A DNA stretch of 64,000 bases from Escherichia coli. GTDB lineage: Bacteria > Pseudomonadota > Gammaproteobacteria > Enterobacterales > Enterobacteriaceae. The position numbers and the translations under genes are program-made. Shown here piece by piece: positions 37,380-40,763 of this stretch. Every line of letters begins with the position of its first letter. Position 1 is the stretch's first letter. The notes under the pieces are model-generated. The model was given only the letters and a program-made list of their open reading frames with translations, was not told the origin of the DNA and searched no databases. The stretch lies in assembly GCF_050320075.1 (NCBI RefSeq), contig NZ_CP190018.1. One strand, written 5' to 3'.

Positions 37380-37609
37380 TATCACGGATGCTTTTATAAA
37401 AATAATTAGAATAAGTCACTACGCATTCCCATAAATGCGGGAGAGGAATCTATCACATTGATAAATGTTAGCCAGATATACGCCAGGAATGGGGAATTGT
37501 TTAGCGGCAGAATATGTAAACAAAAGCGGCAATAAATGTTGCCGGGAGGGATGGTAGGGCGGATAAGATGCATCAGCATCGCATCCGACACCAACCCGCA
37601 CGCTAAATA

Positions 37610-37640
37610 TGAAAGGGGAGCGGTTACCCGCTCCCCTTTG
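37610..37640 (-). terminator. Rho-independent terminator of the tisAB transcript
   Basis: Hairpin aggggagcgg ... ccgctcccct followed by a U-rich tract on the minus strand, 3' of tisB. Confidence 0.6.
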
Positions 37641-37657
37641 GTGCGACTTGAATCTGA

Positions 37658-37747
37658 ATTACTTCAGGTATTTCAGAACAGCATCAAGCAGTTGCAGTGC
37701 TGCAACAATGAGTTTGAGGATAAGAATGGCGATATCCACCAGGCTCA
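37658..37747 (-). CDS. tisB: Type I toxin TisB (SOS-induced membrane-depolarising peptide)
   Basis: Manual translation of the minus strand gives the 29-aa peptide MSLVDIAILILKLIVAALQLLDAVLKYLK, one residue different from K-12 TisB as recalled; below the ORF track size cutoff. Confidence 0.9.
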
Positions 37748-37982
37748 TACGCGTCTCCTGTGGTTCAGGAGCACTGCCAGCTGACGTACCTTTCCGCTGC
37801 CTGTTGCCAGCTGTTGTGCACGCGGTATCTCAAGGAGAAACGTTGTGCTCGTTGACATAACACAGTGTGCTCACGCGGGGTTAAGGCGCTGACGGCACCA
37901 CCCGTTTCAGCCAGGACTTAGTGCGCCGGGTAACGATGCGGCCCCCGCATAACACATTGCGTACAGTGATATTATAGAAGTT

Positions 37983-38002
37983 TACTGTATAAATAAACAG
38001 TA
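37983..38002. promoter_or_regulatory. LexA box (SOS operator) of tisAB/istR-2
   Basis: TACTGTATAAATAAACAGTA matches the LexA consensus TACTGTATATATATACAGTA (CTG-N10-CAG) and lies between divergent tisB and the expected istR position. Confidence 0.85.
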
Positions 38003-38044
38003 ATATTTGGACAAAACGCAAACTGTGATCGATACTCAACTATG

Positions 38045-38185
38045 CACTAAATACGTCAAAATTCGTGCCGAAATTGCGCGTTTTGCGCGGAACACGTATA
38101 CTTTCTGTGTTGACATAATACAGTGTGCTTTGCGGTTACCAGCCGCGGGCGGCTGACGAAACCTCGCTCCGGCGGGGTTTTTTGT
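38045..38185 (+). ncRNA. istR: IstR sRNA locus (IstR-1/IstR-2 antitoxin RNAs); boundaries approximate
   Basis: Divergent from tisB across the LexA box. A 21-nt plus-strand segment at 38110-38130 is a near-perfect direct repeat of 37849-37869 inside the tisAB 5' UTR, i.e. the sRNA would be complementary to the mRNA. A T-tract near 38176-38187 gives a likely 3' end. Confidence 0.5.
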
Positions 38186-38312
38186 TACCTGCAGTACAGT
38201 ACAAAACGTGATCAACCCCTCAATTTTCCCTTGCTGAAAAATTTTCCATTGTCTCCCCTGTAAAGCTGTGCTTGTATAAATATTGTTAAACACAAAACCA
38301 ACAAGGTCCCCA

Positions 38313-40605: not shown

Positions 40606-40763
40606 ATTAGCCCAGGACGTTAATTTAAGTCGCTGCACCGATAACCAGGGGGTTGACAGTTAGGGCTAAAAATTTCCAGCGATGGTGTTAAATTCTGATT
40701 GCTGTCTATACCAGTGGTCATGACCAGCATTCTATTAATTAATGGTTCATCGTGAGGTATATT

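Follow-up and report, generated by a model that had tools for sequence, protein, structure and literature searches.

The 64-kb stretch of DNA analyzed here (the window, an E. coli chromosomal segment that runs from mnmE, dnaA, and gyrB through uhpT) almost certainly carries, to judge from its sequence, the chromosomal tisB/istR-1 type I toxin–antitoxin locus of Escherichia coli in a complete and apparently functional form. The locus is already known, intact, and ordinary, and nothing new follows from its presence. Both ribosome standby control and the formation of persisters under SOS induction have tisB/istR-1 as their textbook example, and its correct recognition here annotates a gene that is overlooked by size-filtered ORF tracks.

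Alignment places the locus directly. Positions 37600-38200 of the window (601 nt) are 99% identical to the region of K-12 MG1655 in which tisB, IstR-1, and IstR-2 are annotated, a comparison that the earlier note had proposed, and the 1-kb region around tisB/istR is 100% identical to many complete E. coli chromosomes. In those identical genomes the RefSeq gene order is emrD, ysdE, tisB, ivbL, ilvB, ilvN, and by the annotations of both K-12 and the identical E. coli genomes the location between emrD/ysdE and ivbL-ilvBN is the K-12 position. From the tisB terminator through the IstR terminator, seven substitutions separate the window from K-12, one of them non-synonymous in tisB and two in the IstR-1 stem. 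Single-base differences are found at 37611 and 37626 (terminator region), at 37850 (in the leader, adjoining the IstR-1 target, where a G·U replaces an A-U with IstR-2 only), and at 38083 and 38106 (in the IstR-2-specific part).

Several observations concern the immediate surroundings. Between emrD and tisB, RefSeq places the 24-codon small-protein gene ysdE (37461-37535, plus strand), whose product gave no Pfam or NCBIfam match. Two weak Rfam matches near ivbL (STnc310 and P6) fall under their gathering scores and coincide with the ivbL attenuator/terminator hairpin; we regard them as chance. The tisB/istR module is itself a presence/absence polymorphism, with approximately 1070 of 5426 complete E. 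coli genomes carrying neither tisB nor istR. In E. coli AH19E045 (L124), for example, ysdE and the ivbL promoter are separated by approximately 150 nt of unrelated sequence in place of about 0.7 kb, in a comparison that spans about 37540-38236 of the window.

To set the locus beside those of other enterobacteria, we scanned one genome per species with a pattern consisting of the IstR internal stem and terminator, from which the pairing segment was deliberately excluded. The pattern is GC-rich and draws many chance matches in high-GC genomes, and by design it misses loci with a different IstR stem. The sample comprises approximately 30 enterobacterial species among the matches listed, including one Salmonella locus, and at least 28 other-species loci were analyzable; the genera covered are Escherichia, Salmonella, Citrobacter, Enterobacter, Leclercia, Lelliottia, Kosakonia, Phytobacter, Pluralibacter, Pseudenterobacter, Siccibacter, and Superficieibacter.

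The toxin gene lies where the earlier note had put a 29-aa TisB gene, on the minus strand: the ORF at 37659-37748 encodes 29 amino acids plus a stop and translates to MSLVDIAILILKLIVAALQLLDAVLKYLK. The product scores 69.9 bits on NF011340, against a cut-off of 53, and 61.5 bits on TIGR04459, against one of 38, both of these being NCBIfam equivalogs; it also matches Pfam TisB_toxin (PF13939; 37.6 bits, cut-off 25), and in the genomes that are 100% identical here RefSeq lists it as TisB, WP_000060506.1. Ahead of the gene, a Shine–Dalgarno sequence, AGGAGA (37754-37759, minus strand), matches the tisB ribosome binding site (RBS) of PMC11264685, Table 1. Among the matches listed, a TisB ORF was recognized in 23-24 of the 28 other-species loci.

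TisB in the window is identical to K-12 TisB at 28 of 29 residues. The sole coding difference in the gene lies in codon 2 (window position 37744), which reads AGC (Ser) here and AAC (Asn, MNLV...) in K-12; the earlier note had given asparagine as the K-12 residue and serine as the residue here, and the K-12 sequence confirms this. We surveyed TisB variants in E. coli with DNA queries. Of 4358 complete E. coli genomes with a tisB gene, 3288 contain an exact match to a 61-nt Ser2 query centered on the single-nucleotide difference, so that any other allele over that query occupies at most 1070 of the 4358. Published work agrees: the consensus TisB found in 85% of genomes carries Ser2, Asn at this residue is found in K-12-lineage laboratory strains, and the N2S form of TisB is toxic, exceeding the K-12 form at low induction (PMC11264685). 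In none of the 23 other-species TisB ORFs among the matches listed does Asn occupy residue 2, which is either Ser or Gly throughout. Ser2 is thus the majority E. coli allele and the Asn2 of K-12 a minority one, as was published in 2024 (PMC11264685); because most genomes carry it, Ser2 is the norm and no peculiarity of the window. For annotators, it is K-12 that is the atypical reference at this residue.

The promoter region contains the near-consensus LexA box that the earlier note had located at 37983-38002 (TACTGTATAAATAAACAGTA). It agrees with TACTG(TA)5CAGTA at 18 of 20 positions, has a perfect CTG-N10-CAG core, is unique within the 64 kb, and is identical in sequence to K-12 in the alignment; none arose in shuffled sequence. 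The box covers part of the tisAB promoter, namely its spacer and -35 region, and ends 5 nt ahead of the istR-2 -35 hexamer; the tisAB -10 hexamer, TATAAT, lies at 37971-37976 on the minus strand. On the plus strand follow the istR-2 promoter (38008-38036; -35 TGGACA at 38008-38013, a 17-nt spacer, and -10 GATACT at 38031-38036) and the istR-1 promoter (38074-38102; -35 TTGCGC at 38074-38079, a 17-nt spacer, and -10 TATACT at 38097-38102). All of the MG1655 promoter and RBS hexamers given in PMC11264685, Table 1, these among them, are found at the expected spacing. The promoter region thus holds a predicted LexA box such as SOS control of tisAB and istR-2 would call for, and a CTG-N10-CAG box stands at the matching position in 27 of 28 other-species loci among the matches listed. 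Expression of istR-1 is constitutive and LexA-independent in K-12 (PMC2826370).

A second LexA-like box (e.g., CACTGCGAACATTTACAGTA) is present in several non-Escherichia genera (loci L023, L036, L046, L053, L056, L067, L082, L091, and L121), approximately 28 nt past the main box on the tisAB side, where it overlaps the tisAB transcription start region; E. coli has one box only. At the far end of the toxin transcript, the sequence AAAGGGGAGCGG-GUAA-CCGCUCCCCUUU (37613-37640, minus strand) reads as a putative intrinsic terminator hairpin of tisAB. It forms a closed hairpin at the 3' end in every predicted mRNA fold and is conserved across genera.

On the other side of the LexA box, the Rfam istR model (RF01400, 130 positions) matches 38054-38183 on the plus strand over its full length, with 145 bits against a gathering score of 45. 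Transfer of the K-12 annotation by alignment gives IstR-2 as a 140-nt sRNA at 38044-38183 (plus strand) that contains the whole of IstR-1. The antitoxin sRNA IstR-1 occupies 38109-38183 (plus strand) if its 5' end is set at the beginning of the pairing segment discussed below (38109-38129); the RefSeq K-12 annotation maps to 38111-38183 (73 nt), beginning two bases into that segment, so that 19 of its 21 nt lie within IstR-1 under RefSeq, against the 21 nt given in the literature. Folding prediction leaves the initial 12 nt of IstR-1 single-stranded, ahead of an internal stem-loop and then a terminator hairpin, which starts at about 38158 and ends in a U-tract at 38183, a terminator-like site. 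In K-12, IstR-2 is under LexA control and is not regarded as a repressor of tisB (PMC6690012, PMC4147584, PMC2826370, PMC11264685). The antitoxin here differs from that of K-12 in having G at 38147 and 38152, where K-12 has A at both positions; these substitutions turn two U-A pairs of the internal stem into U·G and leave the predicted fold unaltered (-31.2 vs -32.5 kcal/mol in K-12). The exact 75-nt IstR-1 allele is a minority one, found in 650 of 4274 genomes, including O157:H7 EDL933.

Might these differences mark a decayed or inactive copy, disabled, for instance, by the N2S change or by the changes in the IstR-1 stem? The seven substitutions relative to K-12, with one non-synonymous change in the toxin and two changes in the antitoxin stem, could be read in that way, and the module as a whole is evidently dispensable, having been lost in approximately 20% of E. 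coli genomes. We nevertheless consider decay very improbable. The ORF, the Shine–Dalgarno sequence, the LexA box, three promoters, both terminators, and the pairing segments are all intact; the supposedly disabling Ser2 is the majority allele within the species, has only Ser or Gly and never Asn as its counterpart in the 23 of 23 other-species TisB ORFs among the matches listed, and yields a peptide at least as toxic as that of K-12 (PMC11264685). The IstR-1 substitutions, for their part, keep both pairing and fold and belong to an allele shared exactly by 650 genomes, O157:H7 EDL933 included.

The element that ties toxin and antitoxin together is a 21-nt repeat, GTTGACATAA(C/T)ACAGTGTGCT, which the earlier note had reported as occurring twice on the plus strand, once about 100 nt upstream of tisB, and had interpreted as the arrangement expected if a trans-encoded IstR-1 pairs with tisAB mRNA. 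There are exactly two plus-strand copies, at 37851-37871 and 38109-38129, against a chance expectation of 0.01 matches, and the first begins 103 nt from the tisB ATG. Alignment to K-12 shows that the repeat corresponds to the IstR-1 pairing region and supports the proposed arrangement: the second copy is the 5' end of IstR-1, and the first is the published target, located in the tisAB 5' leader (minus strand) as part of the ribosome standby site and falling at approximately +94 to +114 if +1 is 37964. The tisAB leader is the location that the literature gives for both IstR-1 pairing and the standby site (PMC4147584, PMC6690012). Because tisAB and istR are divergently transcribed, a direct repeat in the DNA makes their transcripts complementary. 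The predicted IstR-1/tisAB duplex has 21 contiguous pairs, 20 of them Watson–Crick and one G·U; the C/T difference between the copies becomes a G·U wobble in the RNA duplex, with no mismatch, as it does in K-12.

A duplex prediction between the two segments, which the earlier note had suggested, returned -33.5 kcal/mol over the 21 contiguous pairs. Shuffled IstR 21-mers gave -6.3 ± 2.6 kcal/mol, with -18.4 for the best shuffle, and in a sliding scan the IstR-1 target was the best pairing site along the whole of the +42 mRNA. Of the duplex predictions we use this 21-mer energy and the sliding scan, since a prediction with the full-length RNAs over-extended the duplex by ignoring intramolecular structure. 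Experiments in K-12 have directly demonstrated the pairing, RNase III cleavage within the duplex, and the failure of 30S subunits to bind (PMC6690012, PMC4147584).

Conservation of the repeat across genera bears on the same question. Among the matches listed, both copies (at the IstR 5' end and in the tisAB leader) are present 236-257 nt apart in 28 of 28 loci. Position 7 of the repeat, an A in both window copies, is replaced by G on both sides in 20 of the 28 loci among the matches listed, most of which belong to species other than those of Escherichia, Salmonella, and part of Citrobacter (several species); at position 12 the two copies share an A-to-G change in L007 and in L034, again among the matches listed. 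Most of the remaining differences among the matches listed give U·G wobbles, frequently at position 20 and, in E. coli only, at position 11, with an A·C mismatch at duplex position 5 in a minority of genera. Joint change of both copies at two positions supports selection for pairing, although homogenization of the two sequences could in principle produce the same joint changes. That the direct repeat is instead a duplication remnant with no pairing role, or a protein-binding or promoter element, is extremely improbable: the repeat does contain the -35 consensus TTGACA, and its copies do share one strand, as expected after a duplication, but a suitable -10 hexamer is absent after either copy, the copies sit in divergently transcribed and hence complementary RNAs, the paired changes at two positions among the matches listed keep complementarity across genera, and the K-12 experiments cited above demonstrate pairing, cleavage, and loss of 30S binding (PMC6690012, PMC4147584).

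The same variation touches tisA, a 37-aa ORF at 37745-37858 (minus strand) that gave no Pfam or NCBIfam match and whose start codon (37856-37858, minus strand) is part of the IstR-1 target. Where repeat position 7 is G, as in 20 other-species loci among the matches listed, this AUG is an ACG, and a tisA AUG is found in only a subset of the genera among those matches. The tisA ORF is thus not conserved, in agreement with reports that tisA is untranslated in K-12 (PMC2826370).

We infer that tisAB transcription starts at approximately 37964, seven bases 3' of the -10 hexamer, and published landmarks of the leader can be mapped onto the window from that position. The stem-loop reported at +42 to +69, which would form the 5' end of the processed +42 tisB mRNA, then falls at 37923-37896 (minus strand) and has complementary ends (CAC...GUG); its segment is nearly invariant in 10 genera among the matches listed, and the stem-loop is needed for standby binding by S1 and the 30S subunit (PMC6690012). 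The single-stranded standby region, published as +85 to +111, becomes 37880-37854, and the +106 end of the RNase III product (PMC6690012) becomes 37859, within the 21-nt segment. The fit of the +42, +69, and +106 landmarks supports the assumed start, although it does not prove it. When the +1 mRNA is folded in silico, its nt 3-22 are predicted to be base-paired to +85 to +105, which agrees with the published basis for the inertness of the primary transcript. The mean unpaired probability over +85 to +111 rises modestly, from 0.20 in the +1 mRNA to 0.37 in the +42 mRNA, a modeled gain in accessibility on removal of the first 41 nt that hints at the published direction of change.

A lineage difference is apparent within the leader itself. 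Directly 3' of the IstR-1 target, Escherichia and Salmonella have an extra segment of approximately 34 nt (window ~37815-37850, minus strand) that is absent in Citrobacter, Enterobacter, Lelliottia, Phytobacter, and other genera among the matches listed (loci compared: L006, L024, L041, L046, L050, L056, L063, and L066). Accordingly, target and tisB AUG are 102-104 nt apart where the segment is present and 67-72 nt apart where it is missing (Citrobacter, Enterobacter, Kosakonia, and others), among the matches listed. The segment loosely resembles the surroundings of the target (CCGCGTGCACAAC vs CCGCGTGAGCACAC), which suggests a partial duplication. It is conceivable, but in our judgment unlikely, that this segment, combined with the minority G38147/G38152 allele, measurably alters standby efficiency or the antitoxin threshold; if so, these lineages would differ in their TisB persister thresholds.

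Given the near-identity to K-12, we infer for this strain the mechanism worked out there, with expression, LexA binding, and TisB toxicity presumed by analogy. LexA bound at 37983-38002 would repress both the leftward tisAB promoter and the rightward istR-2 promoter until DNA damage removes it. The primary (+1) tisAB mRNA would not be translated, its 5' end being folded back on the leader; loss of the first 41 nt would yield the +42 mRNA and expose the single-stranded standby site, acting together with the 5' stem-loop. S1 and the 30S subunit would load at this site and then shift approximately 100 nt downstream to the structured tisB RBS. IstR-1, made constitutively from its own promoter, would pair through its 5' 21 nt with the standby site, blocking 30S loading and triggering RNase III cleavage to an inactive +106 mRNA. 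Once tisAB mRNA exceeds IstR-1, the 29-aa TisB would be expected to insert into the inner membrane and to lower the proton motive force and ATP, favoring dormant, antibiotic-tolerant persister cells. In K-12, loss of istR-1 raises ciprofloxacin persisters 10- to 100-fold. TisB has been reported to depolarize the inner membrane, lower ATP, and promote ciprofloxacin-tolerant persisters (PMC6690012, PMC4147584, PMC2826370, PMC11264685).

Elsewhere in the window, several further features are apparent. An IS1 element of 768 bp (43826-44593) lies approximately 130 bp upstream of uhpA, with 23-nt terminal inverted repeats, a 9-bp target-site duplication (CCAAACGCT) at 43817-43825 and 44594-44602, and a transposase ORF at 43841-44344 (minus strand; Pfam DDE_Tnp_IS1, 261 bits). 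The element is missing in the otherwise 99.99% identical strain Ecol_545, and it could affect uhpABC expression. Between ilvN and uhpA are two long plus-strand ORFs, at 40752-42047 (431 aa) and 42302-43792 (496 aa), in neither of which was a Pfam domain found and which RefSeq annotates as "hypothetical protein" CDSs in near-identical Ecol_545. Since we take ilvN and uhpA to be neighbors in K-12, these approximately 3.4 kb look like a strain-variable insertion. Adjoining mnmE, at 287-2455 (plus strand), is a gene for a ShET2/EspL2-family type III effector or enterotoxin, assigned from Pfam Toxin_15 (171.9 bits) and the RefSeq product name in Ecol_545. Rfam matches above the gathering score mark AsdA, the antisense RNA of dnaA mRNA (7577-7657, minus strand), the ES036/CssrF sRNA downstream of gyrB (13134-13176, minus strand), and a ROSE_2 thermometer in the ibpA leader (23306-23378, plus strand).

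Among characterized systems, the closest counterpart is tisB/istR-1 of E. coli K-12 MG1655 (b4618/b4616), which shares with the window its position, divergent architecture, LexA box, promoter hexamers, 21-nt pairing segments, G·U wobble, and terminators, and differs at TisB residue 2, at the two IstR-1 stem positions, and at the other single bases described above. Further divergently encoded type I systems under SOS control, dinQ/agrB and the class of zorO/orzO and shoB/ohsC, likewise combine a small hydrophobic inner-membrane toxin with a divergent sRNA that pairs with a long 5' UTR and not with the RBS, and likewise involve an inert primary transcript, activation by 5' processing, and RNase III (PMC4147584, PMC5066626); however, the toxins and sRNAs of these systems are unrelated in sequence to those considered here and their loci lie elsewhere; none of them is the locus in the window. 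The hok/sok system is alike in that a small membrane toxin is kept from being translated by an antisense RNA, with RNase III cleavage to follow, and in having an upstream leader ORF (mok there, tisA here). It differs in that Sok, a cis-encoded RNA, acts on the translation of mok, which it blocks and with which that of hok is coupled, whereas the trans-encoded IstR-1 competes with ribosomes on standby, and tisA is untranslated (PMC4147584, PMC2826370).
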